DNA of 45,246 nt. Source: a virus (Duplodnaviria > Heunggongvirae > Uroviricota > Caudoviricetes). Below the pieces are notes generated by a model. It did no database searches, had not been told where the DNA came from, and worked only from the letters and a program-made list of their open reading frames with translations. The DNA lies in the IMG/VR virus record IMGVR_UViG_2711768010_000017; one strand, 5' to 3'. Positions within the stretch are counted from its first letter, which is position 1; each line of letters begins with the position of its first letter. Positions 166 through 43,679 of this stretch are shown here, one piece after another. A program made the translations under genes and the position numbers.

Positions 166-408
166 TTAGTAACGCCAGCGGTCATAACGCTGATATTTCG
201 GCACTTTTGGTGCTTTAATCGCCTTAATAACCCACACCACCGCAATCGCCAGTAGTAACCACGGCAGCAACTTAATCATCAATGCCAGCATACCGCCGAG
301 GAACATAATGGCCGTCGCCACAACCAGCGCGGCGATAATGCCCAGCAACGAAACGCCGGTGACCATCAGCATGACAAAAAAGCCAATCACAAAAAGTAGT
401 TCCAGCAT
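166..408 (-). CDS. pspG: Phage shock protein G (small hydrophobic inner-membrane protein); the track ORF 166..618 is an upstream over-extension
   Basis: 80-aa very hydrophobic product MLELLFVIGFFVMLMVTGVSLLGII...KYQRYDRWRY from an internal ATG with GGGAGAG RBS; lies immediately downstream of dusA as in E. coli. Confidence 0.7.
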   Translation of the reverse strand: MLELLFVIGFFVMLMVTGVSLLGIIAALVVATAIMFLGGMLALMIKLLPWLLLAIAVVWVIKAIKAPKVPKYQRYDRWRY

Positions 409-443
409 GATGCTCTCCCAAATATGAAATCTCTTGCTGGCAT

Positions 444-459
444 TACAAGAATCATGCCA
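444..459 (-). promoter_or_regulatory. Candidate sigma54-type promoter for pspG (TGGCAT-N5-TTGTA on minus strand)
   Basis: Minus-strand TGGCAT gattc TTGTA about 35-50 bp upstream of the pspG ATG; one mismatch to the -12 consensus; psp genes are known to be sigma54 dependent. Confidence 0.2.
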
Positions 460-541
460 AAAATAATCTATTGATTTAACAGCAAAACGCCCCGCGACGG
501 TGCGCAGGGCGTGGTGAATTTGACTACTTTTTGGTGAAAAG

Positions 542-1579
542 TTAACGCTTATCCGCCACCAGTTTGAGCGCGTGTTCCAGCACATTAATGTCTGCACCCG
601 CTTTATGGGCATTTTCACTTAAATAACGCCGCCACTGCCGCGCGCCAGGAATACCCTGGAACAAGCCCAACATATGCCGGGTAATATGGCCGAGATACGT
701 CCCCTGGCTGAGTTCACGCTCAATGTACGGATACATGGCGCGCACTACCGCCACCGGATCGGCATCGGTATCCGAGGAACCAAAGATCTCCCGGTCTACC
801 GCCGCCAGAATACCCGGATTCTGATACGCCTCGCGCCCGACCATCACGCCATCCATATGTTGCAGGTGTGCTTTGGCCTCTTCCAGCGACTTGATACCAC
901 CGTTAATCGACATTGTCAGATGCGGAAAGTCACGCTTCAGTTGATACACACGCGGATAATCGAGTGGCGGGATTTCACGGTTTTCTTTCGGGCTTAACCC
1001 CGAAAGCCAGGCTTTACGTGCGTGGATGATAAACATCTCACACTCGCCTTTGCCGGAAACGGTGTTGATGAAATCGCAGAGAAATTCATAGCTGTCCTGG
1101 TCATCGATGCCAATACGCGTTTTCACCGTCACTGGAATCGACACCACATCGCGCATCGCTTTCACGCAGTCGGCAACCAGCTGCGCATTACCCATCAGAC
1201 ACGCACCAAACATGCCGTTCTGCACCCGGTCAGACGGGCAGCCGACATTCAGGTTGATCTCATCATATCCACGCGCTTCTGCCAGCTTCGCACACTGTGC
1301 CAGCGCCGCCGGATCGCTACCGCCGAGTTGCAACGCTACCGGATGTTCTTCTTCACTGTACGCCAGGTAATCACCTTTACCGTGAATAATCGCCCCTGTG
1401 GTCACCATTTCGGTATACAGCAACGTATTGCGGGAAAGCAGACGCAAGAAATAGCGGCAATGTCTGTCCGTCCAGTCGAGCATAGGAGCAATGCTAAACC
1501 GAGAACTCCAGTAAGCGCCAGTTTTTTCAGGCATCACGCTGGTTTGATTAGTTTTCTGTGTTTCAGGATTATCGTGCAT
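542..1579 (-). CDS. dusA: tRNA-dihydrouridine synthase A
   Basis: 345-aa ORF with conserved Dus core ([26 protein letters not shown]); the prophage integrase starts 88 bp beyond its 5-prime end. Confidence 0.9.
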
Positions 1580-1612
1580 TTTTGAACATTTCAGGCTATT
1601 TTTCTCGCGTTA

Positions 1613-1647
1613 GGTTCCCGCACAGGTTCCCACGCTTTATGGGAACC
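1613..1647. repeat. GGTTCCC direct repeats plus inverted copy (hairpin) in the dusA-int junction; candidate att/arm-type or promoter element
   Basis: ggttccc at 1613-1619 and 1625-1631, gggaacc at 1641-1647 forming a 7-bp stem with 9-nt loop. Confidence 0.3.
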
Positions 1648-1667
1648 CGAAATAACGAGGTCGTGTA

Positions 1668-2765
1668 ATGGCGTACTATAACATAGAGAAACGACTAAAA
1701 TCCGATGGCACACCACGCTATCGCTGTAATGTGATTATCAAAGAAAAAGGTGTTATCACTTACAGGGAAAGCAAAACATTCCCTAAACATGCTCATGCCA
1801 AAACATGGGGCGCACAGAAAGTGATGGAATTAGATCTATATGGCATTCCATCATCAAATGCTGTTGACGGACTTACAGTCCGTGACTTACTACACAAATA
1901 TTTAAATGACCCAAATGCCGGAGGTAAAGCAGGCCGTACTAAAAGATATGTGCTGGAACTGCTTATGGATAGTGACATCTCCGCGATCAAACTATCTGAA
2001 CTGACAGAAAATGACGTAATTGAACATTGCAGGCTAAGAAACAACGCTGGTGCAGGCCCAGCAACAGTCAGCCACGATGTTAGTTATCTTGGCAGTGTTC
2101 TGGATGCGGCAAAACCTGTATACGGAATCAATTACACATCAAACCCGGCGAAAAGCGCTCGTCCATATCTACTTAAACTCGGTTTGATTGGTAAATCAAA
2201 CCGTCGTAATCGTAGACCAGCATCTGATGAACTGAACATGCTCATTGAAGGCCTTCAACAACGATCTACTCATAAATGCTCAAAAATTCCGTTCGTTGAT
2301 ATCCTCAAATTTTCTGTGTGGTCCTGTATGCGAATCGGAGAAGTATGCCGGTTACGATGGGAAGATCTCGACCAGGAACAAAAATCTATACTAGTAAGAG
2401 ACAGGAAAGATCCACGTAAAAAGGAAGGCAACCATATGAAAGTTGCCTTGCTTGGGGAAGCCTGGGATATCGTCCAGCGACAACCCAAAAAATCAGAATT
2501 CATTTTTCCATATAACAGCACTTCTGTTACCGCAGGATTTCAGAGGGTAAGAAGCAAATTAGGTATTAAAGATCTGAGATACCATGATTTGCGTAGAGAA
2601 GGGGCAAGTCGCTTATTTGAGGCTGGTTTTAGTATTGAGGAAGTCGCTCAGGTTACAGGGCATCGTTCATTAAACGTGCTATGGCAGGTATATACCGAAC
2701 TGTATCCGAAATCTTTACATAATCGTTTTGAAGAACTCCAAAGGAGCAGAAATAAGACCTCTTGA
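1668..2765 (+). CDS. int: Tyrosine integrase of the dusA-targeting family
   Basis: 365-aa ORF with ATG preceded by GAGG RBS; C-terminal catalytic region HDLRREGASRLFEAGFSIEEVAQVTGHRSLNVLWQVY with R/H/R/Y-type signature; sits next to dusA 5-prime end. Confidence 0.85.
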   Translation: MAYYNIEKRLKSDGTPRYRCNVIIKEKGVITYRESKTFPKHAHAKTWGAQKVMELDLYGIPSSNAVDGLTVRDLLHKYLNDPNAGGKAGRTKRYVLELLMDSDISAIKLSELTENDVIEHCRLRNNAGAGPATVSHDVSYLGSVLDAAKPVYGINYTSNPAKSARPYLLKLGLIGKSNRRNRRPASDELNMLIEGLQQRSTHKCSKIPFVDILKFSVWSCMRIGEVCRLRWEDLDQEQKSILVRDRKDPRKKEGNHMKVALLGEAWDIVQRQPKKSEFIFPYNSTSVTAGFQRVRSKLGIKDLRYHDLRREGASRLFEAGFSIEEVAQVTGHRSLNVLWQVYTELYPKSLHNRFEELQRSRNKTS

Positions 2766-2767
2766 CA

Positions 2768-2783
2768 CTGTTTATCCATACAG
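2768..2783. promoter_or_regulatory. LexA (SOS) box 1: CTGT-N8-ACAG
   Basis: CTGTTTATCCATACAG directly after a TTGACA -35 hexamer (2762-2767), upstream of the dinI-like gene. Confidence 0.65.
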
Positions 2784-2795
2784 TTAAAAATAATA

Positions 2796-2811
2796 CTGTA
2801 TACAAATACAG
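2796..2811. promoter_or_regulatory. LexA (SOS) box 2: CTGT-N8-ACAG
   Basis: CTGTATACAAATACAG, 15 bp upstream of the dinI-like ATG at 2826; close to the E. coli LexA box consensus. Confidence 0.7.
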
Positions 2812-2825
2812 TGTAGGGGACTTTT

Positions 2826-3074
2826 ATGCGTATTGAAATCTGCATAGCCAAAGAAAAAATGACTAAAATGCCAACCGGTGCTGTGGATGCGTTAAAGGAA
2901 GAATTAACCCGACGCATCAGTAAACGTTATGACGATGTAGAAGTGATCGTAAAAGCCACCAGCAACGATGGCCTTTCTGTTACGCGCACCGCTGATAAAG
3001 ATTCAGCTAAAACTTTTGTTCAGGAGACTCTGAAAGATACCTGGGAGTCTGCTGACGAGTGGTTTGTTCATTAA
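2826..3074 (+). CDS. DinI-like SOS-response protein (prophage copy)
   Basis: 82-aa product [11 protein letters not shown]...[11 protein letters not shown] resembles E. coli DinI in length and conserved C-terminal TWESADxWF motif; preceded by tandem LexA boxes. Confidence 0.85.
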
Positions 3075-3848: not shown

Positions 3849-5196
3849 AAAGTCATTCTCGAAAAAAAATCTTCTAAAAGTATACTCTGAAAAAATCAAA
3901 GAATCAGGAGCGATTGGCATAGATCGGATTCGCCCATCAAAACTTGATTTGACAATAAAAAATGAGATCACTTTCATTTTTGAAAAGGTTAATTCTGGCA
4001 ATTACAAATTTACAGCATATAAAGAAAAATTAATATCTAAAGGCGCTAACTCTACACCCAGACAGATTTCCATACCAACTGCTAGGGACAGAATTACTCT
4101 TAGAGCTCTCTGTGAATGCCTTACGGAAATATATCCTAAGTCCAGATTAAAACTACCACATACAGTAATTGACTCATTGAAAGAAGCATTAAACAACAGT
4201 CTATATGCTGAATATGCAAAAATAGATCTTAAAAGTTTCTATCCTTCAATTGAACATAAATTGATAATTAATGCAATAAAAAATAAAATTAGAAAAAAAG
4301 AAATTAGACAGTTAATAACATCATCATTAATCGTGCCTACTGTAAGTGGAACCACAGGAAGCAAAGGTATCCCTAATAATACCAGAGGAGTACCTCAGGG
4401 ATTAGCGATATCAAACATTTTAGCTGAAATATCACTATCTAATTTCGATGATGAAATCAATAAAATGCATGACATATGGTACATGCGATACGTTGATGAC
4501 ATTCTTATTTTAACACCAAAATATCAAGCAACAAAAATAGCTTCTCATATCATTGATAAGCTTCAATCATTAAATTTAAACCCACATCCATTAAATGAAG
4601 AGAACTCAAAATCCAAAGTAGGCAGCTTGGATGAAAGTTTCAACTTTTTGGGCTACCACATAAAAAATCGAGAATTATTGATAAAACATGAGAGCATTCT
4701 TAGATTTGAGTCATCCTTAGCAAAAATTTTTACTGCATATAGACACGCTCTACTACAAGCTAAAAATAAGCGCGATAAAGAACGAGCTGTTGCATATTGT
4801 CAGTGGAAACTAAATCTTAGAATTACGGGATGTGTGTTTGAAGGTAAACGATTGGGATGGGTATCGTACTTCTCACAAATAACGTCAACAGCTCAACTTC
4901 GAGCTGTTAATCATACGATCAATAATCTTATCCGCCGATTCGGCCTTTCATCAGAAATAAAACCAAAGTCTTTGATTAAAACTTTCTATGAACTCCGCAG
5001 GGGTAGAGCGGAGACTTTTAAATACATACCTAACTTTGACAATCTACATATATCTCAGAAACGAGAAATTGTTTCTATGTGGATAGGGAAAGAGAATGAA
5101 AAAAAACTTAGCAATAGTGAAATAGAGAGAAAATTTAAATTTAAAATTGCGAAATCAGTAAAAGAGCTTGAAGAGGACATTTCAGGGATATCATAG
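3826..5196 (+). CDS. Reverse transcriptase (defence-associated type, retron-like or UG/Abi-like; family unassigned)
   Basis: RT motifs in order: GIDRIR, RQISIPTARDRITLRAL, KIDLKSFYPSIEH, GVPQGLAISNILAEI, YMRYVDDILIL (YxDD), FNFLGYHI; about 200-aa C-terminal extension; first ATG at 3826 (track start 3820 is TTG). Confidence 0.85.
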   Translation: MTASRIFKKSFSKKNLLKVYSEKIKESGAIGIDRIRPSKLDLTIKNEITFIFEKVNSGNYKFTAYKEKLISKGANSTPRQISIPTARDRITLRALCECLTEIYPKSRLKLPHTVIDSLKEALNNSLYAEYAKIDLKSFYPSIEHKLIINAIKNKIRKKEIRQLITSSLIVPTVSGTTGSKGIPNNTRGVPQGLAISNILAEISLSNFDDEINKMHDIWYMRYVDDILILTPKYQATKIASHIIDKLQSLNLNPHPLNEENSKSKVGSLDESFNFLGYHIKNRELLIKHESILRFESSLAKIFTAYRHALLQAKNKRDKERAVAYCQWKLNLRITGCVFEGKRLGWVSYFSQITSTAQLRAVNHTINNLIRRFGLSSEIKPKSLIKTFYELRRGRAETFKYIPNFDNLHISQKREIVSMWIGKENEKKLSNSEIERKFKFKIAKSVKELEEDISGIS

Positions 5197-5308: not shown

Positions 5309-5893
5309 TTACTCCATAACAGGGACCGCAGGCCACTCAATATCAGGTGCAGTTGATGTATCAACACGGTTCAGCAATACCCGATACTTTTTCCATGCTT
5401 CCAGCAACGAGATTTCTTCCTCCGTTGCAATTTCCAGATCTGCAGCATCCTGAAGCGGCGCAATATGCTCACTGGCTACCTGCATCAGGTTGTTTTTTGT
5501 TTCTTCCGCCTCCCGGATCCGGAACAGTTTTTCTGCTTCCGTATCCTTCACCCAGGCTGTGCCGTTCCACTTCTGAAACTCCCCTTCCGGGGATAACCAG
5601 GTAACATTTTCCGGTAACGGACCGAGTTCAGAAATAAATAACGCGTCCCCTGACGCTACGTCATAAACCGTTTTACCCCGATGGTCTTCAACGAGATGCC
5701 ACGATGCCTCATCACTGTTGAAAACAGCCACAAAGCCAGCCGGAATATCTGGCGGTGCAATATAGGTACTGTTTGCTGGCAGACCTGTATGAGGCGGAAT
5801 ATATGCGTCACCTTCACCAATAAATTCATTAGTTCCGGTCAGCAGATTATAAATTTTTATGGTCCGTGGTTGTTCACTCATTCTGAATGCCAT
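5309..5893 (-). CDS. tfa: Tail fiber assembly protein
   Basis: 194-aa product with Tfa-like N-terminus [24 protein letters not shown]; immediately downstream of the side tail fiber gene. Confidence 0.85.
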
Positions 5894-38383: not shown

Positions 38384-39212
38384 GACGATGCCCTCCGCTG
38401 ATATTCAGGAGACGGTGAATATGAAAATTAGCCTTATCCGCCAGACGAATACGTTCAGCTTGCAAGTTAAGAAGGGTTTCTACCAGAACCTGATGTGCCT
38501 GCGGATCCGAAAGAGTTACCTTGCGCAGAGCACGTAGTGCAGTTGTTACATAACTGAGTTTATGTAAGTCTTCATCATTCAGACGAGTGAGGGCTGGGAC
38601 AGTAGCCATGATGGCAGCCTCCTTGATCGGTGAAATACTTCCACCACCGGAAACGCCAATTTCGCTGGTGGTGAACTGAACGGGGTTGGCGTAACCGGTG
38701 ATCAAGGAAACCGGCGCATCTTTCGATGCCCCCGCCCAGCCCACCATAACTTTGATGTGAGCAAATGCGGACGATAAAAAAGACGCTGGCGCGTCATATA
38801 TCGCCTTGATCAATTCCAGGACGCCAATCCCGGCACCCGCTTTATAAGGTGCCTGAACAGTGTAACGTCCCGGAATGGCAGAATCAATGTGCTGGTGGTC
38901 CTTCACACTCAACAAAATCACGCCTGAATTTCCACAAAGGACTAAAGCACTCATGCGGGTAGTCTTTGCGAAGATAGATAACGCGCTGTGTTTCTGGCTC
39001 CCAACGAATAACATGAACATAAAGTCCTCTTCCGTCACGAAACCAGCGGTTAAGTTCCTGCACAACTCGCCCCCCACAGTCAGGTAAAGTTCTCTGTGGT
39101 TACTTACAGCCAGGTGATTTGGTAATCTGCATTCATGCCGTAACAACAGGTGTTCAGCGACGCTGACCACCAGCTGTTGCGACAAACGGTTATTTGCCGT
39201 TAAACTGTTCAT
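38376..39212 (-). CDS. Hypothetical early-region protein, no recognisable motif
   Basis: 278-aa ORF with ATG start overlapping the neighbouring gene ends; no Walker A motif. Confidence 0.5.
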   Translation of the reverse strand: MNSLTANNRLSQQLVVSVAEHLLLRHECRLPNHLAVSNHRELYLTVGGELCRNLTAGFVTEEDFMFMLFVGSQKHSALSIFAKTTRMSALVLCGNSGVILLSVKDHQHIDSAIPGRYTVQAPYKAGAGIGVLELIKAIYDAPASFLSSAFAHIKVMVGWAGASKDAPVSLITGYANPVQFTTSEIGVSGGGSISPIKEAAIMATVPALTRLNDEDLHKLSYVTTALRALRKVTLSDPQAHQVLVETLLNLQAERIRLADKANFHIHRLLNISGGHRHA

Positions 39213-40004: not shown

Positions 40005-40094
40005 ACAATATGTACCTCCGGTATACATATTACATGATTGAGATGAACCTTCAAGATACTTGTACCTTATCGGTACAAAGGTTTTAATTTCTTT
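40005..40094. promoter_or_regulatory. Immunity operator/promoter region (OR-like) with TGTACC-type palindromic sites
   Basis: atgtacctccggtatacat and cttgtaccttatcggtacaag palindromes between divergent cro and cI. Confidence 0.5.
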
Positions 40095-40769
40095 ATGAAA
40101 ACAGTCCATGACATCCGGCGGTCTAACGCCAGAAAACTGAGAGATGGTGTTGGCGGGAATTCTTCCTTTGCCACCATGATTGATCGCGAGCCAACCCAGA
40201 CCAGCAGGTTTATGGGAGATGGTGCAACTAAAAATATCGGTGACAGCATGGCACGGCACATCGAAAAATGTTTCGACCTGCCTGTCGGATGGCTTGATCA
40301 AGAACACCAGACAACGAACATCACAAAAAAACCTGACGTTTCAATCACTAACAAACAAATAACGTTAGTCCCTGTCATATCATGGGTACAGGCCGGAGCA
40401 TGGAAAGAAGTTGGCTATTCTGAGGTTGATTTGAGCACAGCAGAAACTTATCCCTGCCCTGTACCCTGTGGCGAAATGACTTATATCTTGCGGGTGATTG
40501 GTGATTCAATGATTGATGAGTACCGCCCGGGAGACATGATTTTTGTTGATCCTGAAGTCCCTGCCTGCCACGGTGACGACGTTATTGCATTGATGCACGA
40601 TACAGGCGAAACCACCTTCAAGCGGTTGATAGAAGATGGAACACAGCGTTATCTCAAAGCATTAAACCCAAACTGGCCTGAGCCTTACATTAAGATTAAC
40701 GGTAATTGCTCTATAATTGGTACAGTGATTTTCTCAGGAAAACCAAGAAGATACATAATAAAGGCCTAA
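40095..40769 (+). CDS. CI-type repressor (HTH plus S24 LexA-like autopeptidase domain)
   Basis: 224 aa; N-terminal HTH-like region ending LPVGWLD, C-terminal S24 motifs (VIGDSMIDEY, GDMIFVDP). Confidence 0.85.
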   Translation: MKTVHDIRRSNARKLRDGVGGNSSFATMIDREPTQTSRFMGDGATKNIGDSMARHIEKCFDLPVGWLDQEHQTTNITKKPDVSITNKQITLVPVISWVQAGAWKEVGYSEVDLSTAETYPCPVPCGEMTYILRVIGDSMIDEYRPGDMIFVDPEVPACHGDDVIALMHDTGETTFKRLIEDGTQRYLKALNPNWPEPYIKINGNCSIIGTVIFSGKPRRYIIKA

Positions 40770-40781
40770 TCAATATTTATA

Positions 40782-40804
40782 ACCTGCTTCGGCAGGTTTT
40801 TTTA
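40782..40804 (+). terminator. Rho-independent terminator after cI
   Basis: acctgc-ttcg-gcaggt hairpin followed by TTTTTTTAT. Confidence 0.6.
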
Positions 40805-40807
40805 TAC

Positions 40808-40836
40808 TTGACAATGTACCTTTGGGATACATAATG
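40808..40836 (+). promoter_or_regulatory. PL-like early-left promoter with overlapping operator
   Basis: TTGACA (40808-40813), 16-17 bp spacer containing atgtacctttgggatacat (operator-like), then CATAAT. Confidence 0.45.
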
Positions 40837-41273
40837 TATCTAAAAGAAACACAGCACAGGCAAGATTAAACAAAATTTGGTTGTAACACGGCGTATGGCA
40901 CATGCGTCGTTAGCGGTCTGGGGACGTTAAAGGGGACAATCCACTCCTTGCTCGGGCAAACAAACCAGGTAGCCGGAATGTGCAAGTCAATGATGATGCT
41001 GATAAGACGCCTAACCAGCGTGGCGATTCGGTTTGACGCCTGGGAAGAGACCAGGGTGCAACGATGAGGACATTTATGGAACCGCGACAAAGTGTGGTGC
41101 CGTAACTGGCTAAGTGCTCTCAGCGTTGTGGTGAATGCGCAGGCTGATGCGCGAAAGACATTGCAGCTAATGCGGAAAAGAGCTGTTCGGCGGGGCAATT
41201 AAACGCCCGTGAGAGTCTGAAATAACCGCAAGCCGGAGATCAGCACCGGTCACCACAACAGCCACTGCTTTGG

Positions 41274-41318
41274 CGGTACCAGTTTGTACACTTGCTTCCG
41301 GCTGGTACCGCTCTTTTT
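41274..41318 (+). terminator. Terminator-like hairpin in the early-left leader
   Basis: 9-bp perfect stem cggtaccag/ctggtaccg with 19-nt loop, followed by CTCTTTTTA. Confidence 0.4.
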
Positions 41319-41407
41319 ACAAAACAGAGAAGAGCATCACCGGACGACGGGCTCATAACCAAATCCATCCGGGCGGCTGCCACCGCAGGTGTTCTTCTCT
41401 GTTTTGT
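41319..41407 (+). other. Long inverted repeat (15-bp perfect arms, about 59-nt loop) in the early-left leader
   Basis: acaaaacagagaaga (41319-41333) and tcttctctgttttgt (41393-41407). Confidence 0.4.
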
Positions 41408-41455
41408 GGAGAAACCAACCGACCTTGCAGGGTCGATATGATTAGGAGCAGCAAA

Positions 41456-41818
41456 ATGGCTAGCGAACGCAGTACTGATGTGCAGGCATTTATTGGGGAG
41501 CTGGACGGCGGCGTATTTGAAACCAAAATCGGCGCAGTTCTCAGTGAAGTCGCTTCCGGTGTGATGAACACGAAAACCAAAGGTAAGGTCTCACTCAACC
41601 TGGAAATCGAACCATTTGATGAGAACCGTGTGAAAATCAAACACAAACTCTCATATGTTCGCCCGACTAACCGCGGGAAAATTTCCGAAGAAGACACCAC
41701 CGAAACGCCGATGTATGTCAATCGCGGTGGTCGCCTGACTATTCTGCAGGAAGACCAGGGACAATTACTGACTCTTGCCGGTGAACCTGACGGAAAACTC
41801 CGCGCAGCAGGTCATTAA
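41456..41818 (+). CDS. Hypothetical early-left protein (YfdP-like by recollection)
   Basis: 120-aa ORF from ATG with AGGAG RBS 7 nt upstream; track ORF 41270..41818 is an over-extension. Confidence 0.5.
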   Translation: MASERSTDVQAFIGELDGGVFETKIGAVLSEVASGVMNTKTKGKVSLNLEIEPFDENRVKIKHKLSYVRPTNRGKISEEDTTETPMYVNRGGRLTILQEDQGQLLTLAGEPDGKLRAAGH

Positions 41819-41883: not shown

Positions 41884-42708
41884 ATGTCTCAGAACTTAGA
41901 CGCAACCGCAATTAATCAAATCCATGCCCTTATTTCTGCTCAGGGTGTTAATGAAATTATCAGTAAGATTGGTGCCGATGCTGTGGCATTGCCTGAGAAT
42001 TTCCGCATTCATGATCTGGAAAAATTAAATTTAAATCGTTTCCGTTTCCGTGGTGCGCTTTCCACTGCCAGCATCGATGACTTTACTCGTTATTCTAAAG
42101 ATCTTGCAGATGAAGGCACCCGCTGCTTTATCGATGCTGATAATATGCGTGCCGTCAGTGTTCTTAACCTGGGTACTATTGATGAACCAGGTCACGCAGA
42201 TAACACCGCCACTCTCAAACTGAAAAAGACAGCTCCGTTCTCTGCTCTGTTGTCTGTTAATGGCGAGCGTAACTCCCAGAAGTCACTGGCAGAATGGATT
42301 GAAGACTGGGCCGACTACCTTGTGGGCTTTGATGCTAATGGTGACGCCATTCAGGCAACCAAAGCGGCTGCGGCGATCCGTAAAATCACAATTGAAGCGA
42401 ACCAGACCGCTGATTTTGAAGATAATGACTTCAGCGGCAAACGCTCCCTGATGGAGTCTGTCGAAGCGAAGACCAAAGACATTATGCCAGTGGCATTTGA
42501 ATTTAAATGCGTTCCGTTTGAAGGTCTGAAAGAACGTCCGTTTAAATTACGCCTCAGCATTATCACTGGCGATCGTCCTGTACTGGTTCTGCGCATTATT
42601 CAGCTGGAAGCGGTACAGGAAGAAATGGCTAACGAATTTCGTGATCTGCTTGTTGAGAAATTCAAAGACAGCAAAGTAGAAACCTTTATTGGTACTTTCA
42701 CCGCCTGA
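41884..42708 (+). CDS. Hypothetical prophage protein (DUF2303/YfdQ-like by recollection)
   Basis: 274-aa ORF with GAGGA RBS; no catalytic motif recognised. Confidence 0.55.
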
Positions 42709-42884
42709 TTTCATTACTGCAAATGCCCCTGCGGGGGCATTTACGGAAGCGATAATTTTAACTATTGCCGCCCCTATAAAGAACCATTAAACAATAACGT
42801 GACGTAGCTATTGATAGTAAATGAAGCACTTGCAAAATAATTGCATTGCGTATATATACACACATGTGTTGTATTACAGCGATA

Positions 42885-43679
42885 ATGGTAAAGCAAATGA
42901 TTAACTCTGAAGCAATTGAGCAACTAATGTGGCTATGGTCCTTATTTGACATTAAATTCTTATCTATTCTTGCCGCTGCCTTCACTATATATTTTGGCGT
43001 GCAAAAAATATCAAAAAAGGTGACAGTGTCGTATTCAGCAAATGCAAGTAGAATATATGACATGCATATATCAACCATAATCCTGAATAATAAAAGAGAT
43101 AATGCAATTGCTATATCTTCAATCAATATGGAGGTTGAAGGTAAAGGGATACTACAAGTTATTAAATTTGACTCCCCTCTTCTTTTAAAGAACTATGATT
43201 CTTTAAAAGTTGAACCACCAAAATTTAGCAGCCTTTACAATAATGATGGCGTAGTTAAGTTAGATATTTCTGATAAGTTTCATTTTTATATAATCACGAC
43301 ATCTGGAGATGAAATTAAATGTATTTCTGAAAATAAATATGTAGCACCAAACATGGAAAACAAAATAGCTACAGACATAAGAAAATTTAATGGCATTGTC
43401 TTAACAAACAGAATGTCTTATATTTTTTTCTATGCAAATGACAACGGAGAGAAATACTGCATAATAGATGTTTCATTGTTCATAAATGGTGACAACCCAT
43501 TTCATTTTAATTTTTTAAAAGAAGATGAATTAAGAGATTTTTCTAGCATCCTTATTAGTTACGGATATCACCAACAGTTTAAAAGTTATGCATTGTTTAA
43601 AATAGACAACCATCTTGCTCCTTCTTTGGTTTTAAATAAATCAATGATAGAAAATAATATTATTGAAATGAATAAGTAA
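42885..43679 (+). CDS. AT-rich N-terminally membrane-anchored protein (candidate exclusion/abortive-infection moron)
   Basis: About 264 aa from first ATG; N-terminal TM helix LMWLWSLFDIKFLSILAAAFTIYFGV; strongly AT-rich compared with flanks. Confidence 0.55.
   Translation: MVKQMINSEAIEQLMWLWSLFDIKFLSILAAAFTIYFGVQKISKKVTVSYSANASRIYDMHISTIILNNKRDNAIAISSINMEVEGKGILQVIKFDSPLLLKNYDSLKVEPPKFSSLYNNDGVVKLDISDKFHFYIITTSGDEIKCISENKYVAPNMENKIATDIRKFNGIVLTNRMSYIFFYANDNGEKYCIIDVSLFINGDNPFHFNFLKEDELRDFSSILISYGYHQQFKSYALFKIDNHLAPSLVLNKSMIENNIIEMNK

Follow-up and report, generated by a model that had tools for sequence, protein, structure and literature searches.

The interval 40843-41455 of the window, i.e. 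of the whole 45,246-nucleotide stretch of caudoviral DNA analysed here, is supported as the non-coding head of a cI-controlled early-left transcript. It consists of five modules (A, A', B, T1 and D) that directly adjoin one another and are individually conserved in other phages; compensatory base changes were counted for A, A', B and D. The reading favoured here, tentatively and with somewhat less than an even chance of being correct, is that this leader is an early stable-RNA cassette with a tRNA-operon-like layout, fused to an attenuator (T1) and a structured 5' UTR (D). The features on which the argument is built are the following:

40095-40769, cI-like S24 repressor gene (Pfam PF00717)
40781-40805, plus strand, intrinsic terminator of the cI-like repressor gene: 7-bp stem (40781-40798), 4-nt loop, T-run
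40808-40835, plus strand, PL-like sigma-70 promoter, TTGACA-16-CATAAT, agreeing with 11/12 consensus positions
40815-40831, no strand assigned, OL-type operator palindrome in the PL promoter spacer, TGTACC-N6-RTACA
40885-41059, plus strand, core A, structured RNA of about 175 nt (covariance model R1 and counted pair changes)
41057-41131, plus strand, A' spacer hairpin, GCAACGAUGAGgaCAUU ... AGUGCUCUCAGCGUUGU, ending where module B starts
41125-41259, plus strand, module B, tRNA-shaped scaffold (complementary arms, covarying D-like and T-like stems)
41272-41318, plus strand, T1, terminator-like hairpin with a 13-bp stem and a 15-nt loop, then C-UUUUU (fold and conservation)
41319-41407, plus strand, D, three-way-junction RNA with a 20-bp closing stem
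41408-41458, plus strand, junction, GGAGAAACCAAC, to the ATG at 41456, with a hairpin at 41420-41435 (UUGCAG-type loop) and the Shine-Dalgarno (SD) sequence AGGAG at 41444-41448
41456-41818, plus strand, first early-left ORF, YfdP-like, 120 aa (phrog_204, E = 1e-49, function unassigned)
41884-42708, DUF2303/YfdQ-like gene, next after the YfdP-like ORF

Promoter, operator and coding potential of the leader

A PL-like promoter carrying a cI-operator-like palindrome, as proposed earlier from the letters of the sequence, is indeed present behind the cI terminator, and the operator in its spacer is one of three exact sites of the motif TGTACC-N6-RTACA in 45 kb (40011-40027, 40061-40077 (cro/cI intergenic) and 40815-40831). 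With at most one mismatch on both strands, the motif yields 6 matches compared to 0.66 expected, a number reached by 0/100 shuffled sequences. Transcription from PL probably starts at about position 40842, as judged from the promoter sequence. An identical promoter is annotated in phage Ayreon. The sequence-only reading was right in placing about 620 nt of non-coding DNA between this promoter and the first early-left gene, whose ATG lies, however, at 41456 and not at 41457. As a whole, the leader folds more stably than 20/20 shuffled sequences (z = -3.9). In CPS-53 of E. coli K-12 the leader is deleted.

With respect to coding potential, the claim that no plus-strand ORF exceeds about 30 codons does not hold literally, as there are ORFs of 39, 36 and 49 codons, all with TTG or GTG starts and without an SD sequence, but none of them is conserved in frame. 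In diverged homologues the frame is kept in 0/19, 0/6 and 3/14 cases for the plus-strand ORFs, the latter three being ungapped alignments at 83-96% identity, and in 0/19, 0/17 and 0/15 cases for the minus-strand ORFs, which span 32-110 codons. No arginine-rich motif was found in the leader ORFs, and neither a small arginine-rich N-like protein downstream of PL nor any conserved ORF in 40843-41455 came to light, so that the frame-conservation test and a PHROG search both agree with the earlier statement that the leader lacks an N-like ORF. Two leader ORFs match PHROG families without assigned function; these matches lie in a single region, D, on its plus and minus strands alike, which suggests that the ORFs are overcalled. 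In mEp460, Ayreon and cdtI several leader ORFs are annotated as hypothetical proteins. Downstream of the leader, the YfdP-like first ORF matches no Pfam family and its N-terminus is not arginine-rich.

Core A

Core A comprises a hairpin H1, a long helix H2 with a variable tip, the strand GGUAGCCGGAAUGUGCAAG, an H-type pseudoknot and a hairpin with a GAAGAGA loop; since GGUAGCCGGAAUGUGCAAG served as a search seed, its invariance is partly a matter of ascertainment. The covariance model R1 finds a single copy in the window (139 bits, E = 3e-43). Of the cells in an alignment of 26 sequences, 96.9% pair, compared to at most 48% in slid controls, and 10 pairs are changed on both sides; in a second, independent set (21 distinct sequences) the values are 95.7% and 9, respectively. 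In H1, for instance, G-C is replaced by A-U in 12/26 sequences. These pair counts use the model as built, in which the register of H2, with its two invariant G-U pairs, is probably off by a few nucleotides; the Kp4866-6 variant favours the register CGG/CCG plus CCGG/CCGG.

Core A occurs in 1375 of 5426 complete E. coli genomes as well as in phage P1 and phiV10-like phages, and none of the 25 records listed annotates it. In the window it starts about 45 nt past the predicted PL start; in related loci it usually lies 7-125 nt downstream of a promoter-like site, and in 74 of 100 contexts it is separated from the first ORF by at least one terminator-like site. The P1 copy lies in mid-operon, immediately behind trnI and 97 nt upstream of ban, with no terminator between core A and ban.

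A tRNA slot occupied by module B

The spacer hairpin A' has a folding energy of -27 kcal/mol (z = -2.2), and at the tested position of 67 distinct copies from related loci there are 32 A-U, 26 C-G, 5 G-C and 4 G-U pairs and no non-pairs. In phiV10-like phages the promoter type, core A and A' are as here and are followed by a gene for tRNA-Arg, at whose 5' end A' stops exactly; this tRNA begins at GUGG, the position at which B starts in the window, and on its 3' side the same trailer (AAUCACGCC...) and a T1-type hairpin with U5 follow. Module B in the window is thus flanked as tRNA-Arg is in these phages. In addition, a P1 isolate carries a 95% identical copy of B directly after tRNA-Thr, and B is also found beside tRNA genes in the lytic phages swi2 and Taipeivirus UPM 2146.

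Module B itself has an acceptor-like stem of 9-10 bp (GUUGUGGUGA/UCACCACAAC) whose 10-nt arms are perfectly complementary, a D-like hairpin GCGC-AGGCUGAU-GCGC, a T-like hairpin GCCGG-AGAUCAGCA-CCGGU and a variable insert of 79 nt. The family has 24 distinct members of 87-203 nt with conserved ends and middles that are unrelated between members, the inserts spanning 31-145 nt in the members measured. In the D-like and T-like stems 96.6% of cells pair and 6 pairs are changed on both sides; the acceptor-like stem is invariant, so that covariation speaks neither for nor against it. ARAGORN detects neither a tRNA nor a tmRNA in the window, Rfam does not call B either, and the canonical D-loop and T-loop signatures are absent from B. 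A tmRNA call in phage swi2 looks spurious, its span ending at the 3' end of the adjacent tRNA-Met, and the frame GCA GCU AAU ... in the insert of the window's B, which resembles a tmRNA tag, is not kept in other B inserts. At three loci the B insert is a sense copy of nucleotides 243-282 of E. coli 16S rRNA in which helix changes are compensated (alignment scores of 45-50 compared to a shuffle maximum of 28); the window's own B insert has no similarity to 16S rRNA.

T1, D and the junction to the first gene

The stem plus T-run reported at 41274-41318 corresponds to a real and conserved hairpin, the stem of which measures 13 bp instead of 9 bp, pairing 41272-41284 with 41300-41312, followed by a C and by U5 at 41314-41318 (-21.2 kcal/mol, z = -5.0). 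Having a hairpin and an immediate U-run, T1 is predicted to be an intrinsic terminator, of uncertain efficiency given its 15-nt loop and only five U; it was missed by a terminator scan limited to loops of 8 nt. A hairpin of this type with a U-run of 4-7 precedes the D anchor in 77 of 79 distinct contexts, at a distance of 27 nt in 69 of them, and its stem sequences vary between phages while complementarity, judged by eye and not formally counted, is kept. No promoter-like site was found from T1 to the ATG, so that the first genes would rely on read-through.

Likewise, the 15-bp inverted repeat described at 41319-41407 is real and conserved but is part of something larger, namely 25-nt arms of 84% complementarity that close a three-way junction by a 20-bp stem. 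D folds at -44.1 kcal/mol (z = -7.6); its alignment of 21 sequences has 95.4% pairing cells, with slid controls at 53% or below, and 9 pairs changed on both sides. The covariance analysis that had been proposed for the hairpins of homologous phages accordingly finds compensatory changes for D by count. The internal strand GACGGGCUCAUAACC(A/C)AAUCC is nearly invariant, which points to a specific ligand or partner beyond an RNase III stem. At least 120 viral contigs contain D; in ST64B and Klebsiella phage Kp4866-6 it precedes the first early-left gene. After D, most related loci have the motif GGAGAAAC and a GC hairpin with a (U/G)(U/G)GCAG loop; taken alone, the corresponding hairpin of the window (41420-41435) has a stability at shuffle level (z = -0.2).

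Modular order and previous annotation

BLAST comparisons reveal a mosaic in which different phages share different sub-intervals of the query (100-691, 353-691, 502-691, 119-362 and 343-491 in query coordinates), and the modules behave as exchangeable cassettes whose order is fixed: promoter/operator, first module, A', a slot for a tRNA or B, T1, a second structured element, and finally the ribosome-binding site (RBS) with the first ORF. The alignments were gathered with exact-match seeds, which inflates the invariance of the seeds. The suggestion of an unannotated structured RNA in the leader is borne out for both hairpins flagged at the time; that the leader is a mosaic of separately conserved modules with a tRNA-operon layout had been missed.

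At the gathering threshold, Rfam 15 finds only C4, isrK and IS009 in the window, all of them outside the leader; with E up to 10, the interval 40700-41520 gives noise only, and 15 related loci give only tRNAs, C4 and isrK. The invariant 16-mers were not found in literature text, the supplement of the Pas sRNA preprint is without these sequences, and no description of the modules was found in the literature, the put-like candidate sites of King et al. 2011 lying outside the comparison. Module annotation is likewise missing from the records examined, in which current annotations place spurious ORFs on the modules.

Is the leader a put-like or N-dependent antitermination region?

In its placement the leader does resemble a put region, since core A lies just past a repressor-controlled promoter and T1 about 210 nt further on, an arrangement shared by most related loci. 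Put-like antitermination, which the sequence-only reading had considered consistent with the leader, nevertheless gains no support from the R1 model, the put signature or the put alignment. R1 has no match in HK022 (filters off, E up to 10) or HK639. The put signature, a regular expression (GAACGGCSCG ... GUCGG ... GGCG(U)GG..AGGAWGA) used instead of a model because the three-sequence put alignment is poorly registered, occurs only in HK022 putL and putR and in HK639 putL, in 0/248 related loci, and is absent from the window. Local alignments of HK022 putL and putR and HK639 putL to the leader have scores that 116, 486 and 539 of 1000 shuffles equal or exceed. Homology to HK022/HK639 put was rejected on the basis of these three comparisons, and the 9-mer CAUGCGUCG is not significant alone as a sign of it. 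Furthermore, T1-D occurs without core A in 78 of 114 loci by signature and in 77 of 88 further loci by model, in some of them about 80 nt past the promoter and with no large module; read-through can therefore not generally depend on core A.

As to N-type antitermination, boxA-like matches (YGCUCUUWA) are at chance level (30 compared to 29.2 expected). The sole match in the leader, at 41309-41317, has a mismatch, lies within the 3' arm of T1 and reads CCGCCCUUUUU in relatives; no boxB-type hairpin was found in the leader. Antitermination of the boxA/rrn type via UGCUCUUU in A' was rejected, as UGCGCUUCC substitutes for it with a compensating change in the partner strand and boxA is at chance.

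Proposed mechanism and alternative explanations

Under the favoured reading of the leader as a stable-RNA cassette with attenuator and 5' UTR, PL would fire upon loss of cI, and the transcript would undergo pre-tRNA-like cleavage both between A' and B and behind the acceptor-like stem, thereby freeing core A plus A' and B as stable early RNAs; cleavage at B may be by RNase P, to judge from the position of B. T1 would halt a fraction of the polymerases, and those remaining would make an early-left mRNA with D at its 5' end, the 20-bp stem of which would be long enough for RNase III-type processing or for translational control of the first ORF. The leader would thus both supply non-coding RNAs at the start of lytic growth and set the amount of early-left mRNA.

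An alternative that we hold to be unlikely is that core A acts in cis by binding the transcribing RNA polymerase, which would then pass T1 and later terminators and withstand Rho, core A being analogous in function to HK022 put but belonging to a different, larger family. In most contexts no other module stands between core A and the early promoter, 74 of 100 contexts have terminator-like hairpins behind it, neither an N-like ORF nor a nut site was found, and a long untranslated RNA is an obvious target for Rho; the sequence ACGGCG...CAUGCGUCG is moreover common to H1 of core A and stem I of putL in HK022 and HK639. As put is active even when untethered from the transcript (PMC9378689), processing at the tRNA slot would be compatible with such a function, and in the LLS phage paper (PMC12315714) a put-like mechanism is raised as a speculation for relatives of mEp460_4F5 that lack N. 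This is opposed by the failure of R1 to match HK022 and HK639, by the absence of the put signature from all related loci and an alignment at shuffle level, by the occurrence of T1-D without core A in most loci, and by the mid-operon position of core A in P1, 97 nt before ban with no intervening terminator. Somewhat less probable still is that the modules, chiefly B, act in trans as decoys or sponges, being produced as soon as infection or induction begins, with the link to early-left expression being incidental; they would neutralise host factors, for example RNA-binding proteins or nucleases directed at tRNA or rRNA. The constancy of B at its ends and the lack of relation among its inserts, the 16S rRNA copy serving as insert at three loci, the presence of B beside tRNA genes in the lytic phages swi2 and UPM 2146 and its place at the very start of the first transcript would all fit; however, no target is known, the window's insert is without 16S likeness, T1 and D are left unexplained, and variable inserts would also be expected from recombinational cassette exchange without any decoy function.

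Improbable, in turn, is a riboswitch-like core A that senses a ligand or protein and controls downstream expression by switching between H1 and the long-range pairing GCACAU/AUGUGC. Its very highly conserved unpaired strands and pseudoknot are aptamer-like, RNAalifold favours the alternative pairing, and some loci have an RBS and ATG, or a terminator, directly after core A. However, covariation backs H1, whereas on the alternative helix, which is invariant, it is silent; the window has no adjacent expression platform, as T1 lies about 210 nt downstream with exchangeable modules between; and the genes downstream of core A are unrelated across contexts (ban, tRNA-Arg, yfdP-like). Scarcely credible, finally, is that the leader encodes a small protein missed by annotation, be it an N-like antiterminator or another. 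ORFs of 36-49 codons (plus strand) and 32-110 codons (minus strand) do exist, several carry a hypothetical-protein annotation in mEp460, Ayreon and cdtI, and two match PHROG families. Yet every ORF loses its frame in diverged homologues, the TTG/GTG starts lack an SD sequence, an arginine-rich motif is absent, the PHROG matches lie on opposite strands of one conserved RNA, and base-pair covariation accounts for the conservation. A coding function of the leader was rejected on the frame loss together with the pattern of PHROG matches.

Implications

A wider and doubtful conjecture is that enterobacterial phages carry an unrecognised combinatorial system of early RNA cassettes acting against the host from the onset of infection, as decoys or as modifiers of polymerase or ribosome. 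In such a system, which is put forward with equal doubt, the B scaffold would show exchangeable cargo, including a mimic of 16S rRNA helix 11, conserved spacer hairpins would flank it and core A would form the head. If this holds, three new functional classes of RNA would have to be recognised, namely core A, B and D, and a quarter of E. coli genomes would carry one of these classes. The modules are part of the first RNA of waking prophages of a very common group found in E. coli, Shigella, Salmonella and Klebsiella, which includes Stx2c- and Stx2a-converting phages and P1-like phage-plasmids. Should core A modify RNA polymerase, it would be the second class of RNA antiterminator after put, far more widespread, and would explain delayed-early expression in N-less lambdoid phages; should B function as a decoy scaffold, phages would have a new strategy against their hosts and the engineered 'tRNA scaffold' a natural counterpart. 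The covariance-supported alignments represent three or four candidate RNA families.

Comparison with known systems

The put RNAs of HK022 and HK639 suppress termination in cis without protein factors, via the zinc-binding domain of the beta' subunit. Like them, the leader is a structured non-coding RNA that is made shortly behind a repressor-controlled early promoter in a lambdoid phage lacking N, and terminators follow it. However, put measures about 70 nt with two stems, as opposed to about 175 nt with four helices and a pseudoknot in core A, and the apical hairpin GCUC-AGGAA-GAGC of put has no counterpart in the leader. The nutL-N leader of lambda combines a boxA/boxB site with an RNase III-sensitive hairpin before the N start. 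It shares with the window a long structured leader from PL to the first gene and a long perfect stem immediately ahead of the RBS as a possible RNase III substrate, whereas in the window boxA is at chance and both a boxB-type hairpin and an N-like ORF are lacking; D, in contrast to the RNase III-sensitive hairpin of lambda, is a three-way junction with a nearly invariant internal strand and not a simple duplex.

With tmRNA and YrlA, the bacterial Y RNA, module B has in common acceptor-, D- and T-like stems around a large non-tRNA insert, but, unlike these RNAs and tRNA, it goes undetected by ARAGORN and Rfam. Its T-like loop is AGAUCAGCA instead of UUCRANY, the tag reading frame of tmRNA has no conserved counterpart in B, and the 3' end of B is ACAG in the window, CCA being encoded only in some relatives. 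Phage tRNA clusters, such as the P1 ban operon with its dicF-like region and three tRNAs, resemble the leader in that structured untranslated units are arranged head-to-tail behind an early promoter, and the tRNA region of the P1 ban operon itself contains core A and B; in the tRNA cluster of T4, the stable species 1 and 2 RNAs are co-transcribed. The array in the window differs from such clusters in being without a genuine tRNA and in being joined to the immunity region, with a terminator and a 5' UTR element placed before the protein genes.

Prophage setting and early-left promoter

The window is a lambdoid prophage of the SfV/cdtI/mEp460 type. Opposite in direction to cI lie cro, a CII-like gene and a P1-type immunity cassette.

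40095-40769 (+), S24-family cI-like repressor (Pfam)
38664-38751 (-), C4 antisense RNA (Rfam, 82 bits), in the immunity cassette
38776-38852 (-), isrK (Rfam, 64 bits), in the immunity cassette

C4 and isrK lie side by side and adjoin an Ash-family 'immunity region' gene. The stretch 38664-38852 (-) is a P1-type immI cassette, which this lambdoid prophage carries in its early-right arm. Elsewhere in the window, a full-length Rfam IS009 match (5352-5550, minus strand, 224 bits) lies within the tail-gene region, and a 277-aa ORF (42846-43679, plus strand; phrog_14996, of unknown function, no Pfam family) separates the DUF2303 gene from a PrtN-like gene and, having promoter-like sites of its own, may be an inserted moron.

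Beyond the cI terminator lies a strong promoter-like site (TTGACA-16-CATAAT, 40808-40835). No credible gene was found between this site and ATG 41456, where the YfdP-like first early-left gene starts; a DUF2303/YfdQ-like gene comes after it. As exact matches to the operator motif TGTACC-N6-RTACA occur twice between cro and cI, once in the promoter spacer (40815-40831) and nowhere else, the promoter is, judged by these motifs, almost certainly under cI control. When one mismatch is allowed, both strands together have six matches, where chance would give 0.66. The observation of a PL-like promoter with a cI-operator-like palindrome by the sequence-only reading holds. Promoter, transcription start and terminator assignments are predictions.

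The leader under this cI-type operator is non-coding and as a whole more stable than all shuffles (z = -3.9). The earlier statement that no plus-strand ORF exceeds about 30 codons does not hold to the letter: small ORFs exist on both strands, some of them annotated in relatives, and none retains its reading frame in diverged homologues. Two of them over module D (49 aa on the plus and 47 aa on the minus strand, window 41240-41441) match phrog_33599 and phrog_3651, both of unknown function and probably built from ORFs overcalled on conserved RNA.

Mosaic leaders and their modules

BLASTN of a 691-nt leader query against phage genomes returned 178 records, in which the shared sub-intervals vary from phage to phage, and reading of the matched loci resolved five abutting modules.

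Intervals of the 691-nt query shared with other phages (BLASTN)
whole query: cdtI, Ayreon and Stx2c phages (88-89% identity)
100-691: mEp460
353-691 and 502-691: other phages
119-362: phiV10-like podoviruses
106-283: P1
343-491: a P1 isolate
344-385 (40-nt piece): many unrelated lytic phages

Core A (40885-41059) was collected by scanning viral contigs with the 19-mer GGUAGCCGGAAUGUGCAAG (at least 120 loci). Its fold comprises hairpin H1 of nine pairs, the long helix H2, whose tip is variable, a stem of three pairs with the loop CACC, which pairs with a downstream GGUG as a pseudoknot, and a five-pair hairpin with the loop GAAGAGA. Among 26 representatives of less than 96% identity, 96.9% of cells are paired (slid controls 27-48%) and ten pairs are changed on both sides; because exact matches served as seeds for the alignments, invariance at the seeds is overstated. 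The covariance model R1, whose E-values are rough, has a single match in the window (139 bits). An independent H1-based pattern gave 22 true matches in species-representative genomes, with 95.7% pairing and nine doubly changed pairs. Enterobacterales account for 21 of them (Kosakonia, Phytobacter, Citrobacter, Klebsiella, Kluyvera, Enterobacter, Erwinia, Pseudescherichia, Superficieibacter and Escherichia), and the remaining one comes from a 1.7-kb contig assigned to Bacillota, which is probably mis-binned. Core A is present in 1375 of 5426 complete E. coli genomes, with 255 places plasmid-borne, and is annotated in none of the 25 records listed. Of 121 distinct contexts, 64 have a promoter-like site (at least 9/12) in the 200 nt upstream of core A, typically 7-125 nt before it; P1 is an exception, core A following directly after trnI (tRNA-Ile), 97 nt before ban. 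The otherwise well annotated P1 record has no feature over this full copy in the trnI-ban interval (L004 3010-3190). A divergent copy (117 bits) in Klebsiella phage Kp4866-6 (L161 709-870) reads AGCAGCC...GGACAACUGG where others have AGCGGUC...GGUAGCCGG, which suggests that the base of H2 pairs as CGG/CCG plus CCGG/CCGG and not in the modelled register.

The spacer hairpin A' (41057-41131) was gathered in 67 distinct copies from the related loci examined, with the strands ...ACAAC..AAG(N)GCAYU and RGUGC(N')CUU..GKUGUG; the next unit starts at the end of the 3' strand. The N/N' position is A-U in 32, C-G in 26, G-C in five and G-U in four copies and never unpaired, a pattern that marks the helix as selected, and the idea that UGCUCUUU is a boxA was therefore dropped. 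The window itself has GAGGACA (41068-41072) where relatives have GAGAGCA or GAGGGCA, giving an A-C mismatch within a stem conserved in other respects.

Module B (41125-41259) is tRNA-shaped. Its 10-bp closing stem (GUUGUGGUGA/UCACCACAAC) encloses AU and a D-like hairpin, next a 79-nt insert, and finally a T-like hairpin that directly adjoins the 3' strand. Family members, 24 of them distinct (87-203 nt), have near-identical ends and unrelated middles, and in a 'mini' alignment of both ends the D-like and T-like stems show 96.6% pairing and six pairs changed on both sides, the closing stem being invariant. Neither tRNA finders nor Rfam recognised B. In phiV10-like phages the order is promoter, core A, A' and a bona fide tRNA-Arg, which begins with GUGG, as does B in the window, and is followed by the trailer AAUCACGCCU.AGGACCGUGAU and then a T1-type hairpin with U5; the trailer follows B in several other loci but not in the window. 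From this order, with tRNA-Arg in its place, B appears to occupy a tRNA slot. In a P1 isolate B follows tRNA-Thr (L006 3001-3149), and in lytic phages it lies beside tRNA genes or within long unannotated regions.

The B insert of three phage contigs (L069 ~4580-4640, L096 ~1600-1665, L100 ~3960-4020) copies nt 243-282 of E. coli 16S rRNA in sense orientation (helix 11 region; identity 34-35/40, score 45-50 against a shuffle maximum of 28), with compensated helix changes (UAGGUG/CACCUA to AUGGUG/CACCAU). Unannotated RNA-rich regions of phage swi2 (L157 ~1296-1330) and Klebsiella phage UPM 2146 (L158 ~1324-1357) contain the frames GCA AAC GAA GAA AUG UAU CUG GCC GUA GCU UAA (ANEEMYLAVA*) and GCA AAC GAU AAU ACG UUC CUG GCA GUA GCU UAA (ANDNTFLAVA*), similar to the tmRNA tag ANDENYALAA; ARAGORN found no genuine tmRNA in these regions. 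A stretch of UPM 2146 (Taipeivirus; 400-3044), more than 2.5 kb without annotated gene, contains module B together with A'-type hairpins and several hairpins resembling T-arms (GGUUCGAUUCC); it has the look of a large non-coding RNA island in a lytic jumbo-type phage.

T1 and D occupy 41272-41407. The hairpin and T-run noted earlier are real, although the T1 stem has 13 bp (41272-41284 with 41300-41312, then C-UUUUU; -21.2 kcal/mol, z = -5.0) and not nine. Likewise, the arms of the perfect 15-bp inverted repeat extend to 25 nt, and D folds as a three-way junction (-44.1 kcal/mol, z = -7.6) of a 20-bp closing stem, a five-pair arm with the near-invariant strand and a variable arm. Scanning viral contigs with this strand, GACGGGCUCAUWACCMAAUCC, gave at least 120 contigs. 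The proposed covariance check of the hairpins in related phages yielded nine doubly changed pairs at 95.4% pairing for D (21 representatives); T1 stems vary with complementarity kept (GGCGGUACCAG, GGCGGCGUC, GUCGGCGUC, GGCGGUUAUCC and others), as judged by eye and not by formal count. In 77 of 79 contexts D is preceded, at a fixed distance, by a stable hairpin and its U-run of 4-7. On the 3' side of D follows GGAGAAAC; next come a GC hairpin, whose loop is (U/G)(U/G)GCAG, then an SD and finally the first ORF, whose identity changes from phage to phage; no promoter-like site was found from T1 to ATG 41456.

Module combinations and interpretation

In 74 of 100 contexts one or more terminator-like sites separate core A from the first ORF, but core A was present by signature in only 36 of 114 D-containing contexts and by model in only 11 of 88 newly collected loci. 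Terminators thus usually follow core A, but D does not depend on its presence. Other leaders begin with a module 'E' of about 75 nt (ACAGCGAACAGGCAGGACGCCCACGAAGUAGCCGCC-hairpin-GGAUGAUUCGCUG), and some reach from promoter to T1 in about 80 nt. Given these differing combinations, the modules are independent cassettes in conserved order. Module E, a conserved first module, directly follows the PL-like promoter where it occurs, in leaders without core A.

Loci with module E
SfV (L003): ~2620-2700
ST64B (L160): ~640-720
also L166, L168, L170 and L180, further related phage loci

The leader contains, in line with the sequence-only reading, unannotated structured RNA, in five conserved modules, four of them with counted covariation; their order is that of a tRNA operon, and a conserved terminator-like hairpin precedes the first gene. 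We tentatively read it as a tRNA-operon-like leader, in which the B slot would undergo RNase P/E-type processing, T1 would terminate transcription partially and D would act in processing or translational control. The main rival, in which core A would modify the polymerase as a new class of antiterminator, is unlikely. That A and B are decoy or anti-host RNAs is rather improbable, and would be compatible with a tRNA-operon-like leader as well as with an antiterminator.

Comparison with known systems

No Rfam family was found for the leader modules, nor any description in the literature, although most subscription journals lay outside the search and a prior description is possible. The use of put-like RNA by N-less relatives has been raised as speculation only (2025; PMC12315714). 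In comparison with putL and putR of HK022 and with the RNA annotated as putL-like in HK639, the put-like antitermination suggested earlier fails as family membership: R1 has no match in HK022 or HK639, none of the related loci has the put signature, and put-to-leader alignment scores are reached by 12-54% of shuffles; core A was therefore rejected as a put family member. Matches to nut/boxA are at chance level. A functional analogy of core A to put is weakened as well, because D often occurs without core A and some leaders have so short a way from promoter to T1. What core A H1 has in common with putL stem I is ACGGCG...CAUGCGUCG, in which the U corresponds to U28 of putL, the base seen by cryo-EM in contact with the zinc-binding domain of beta' (PMC9378689).
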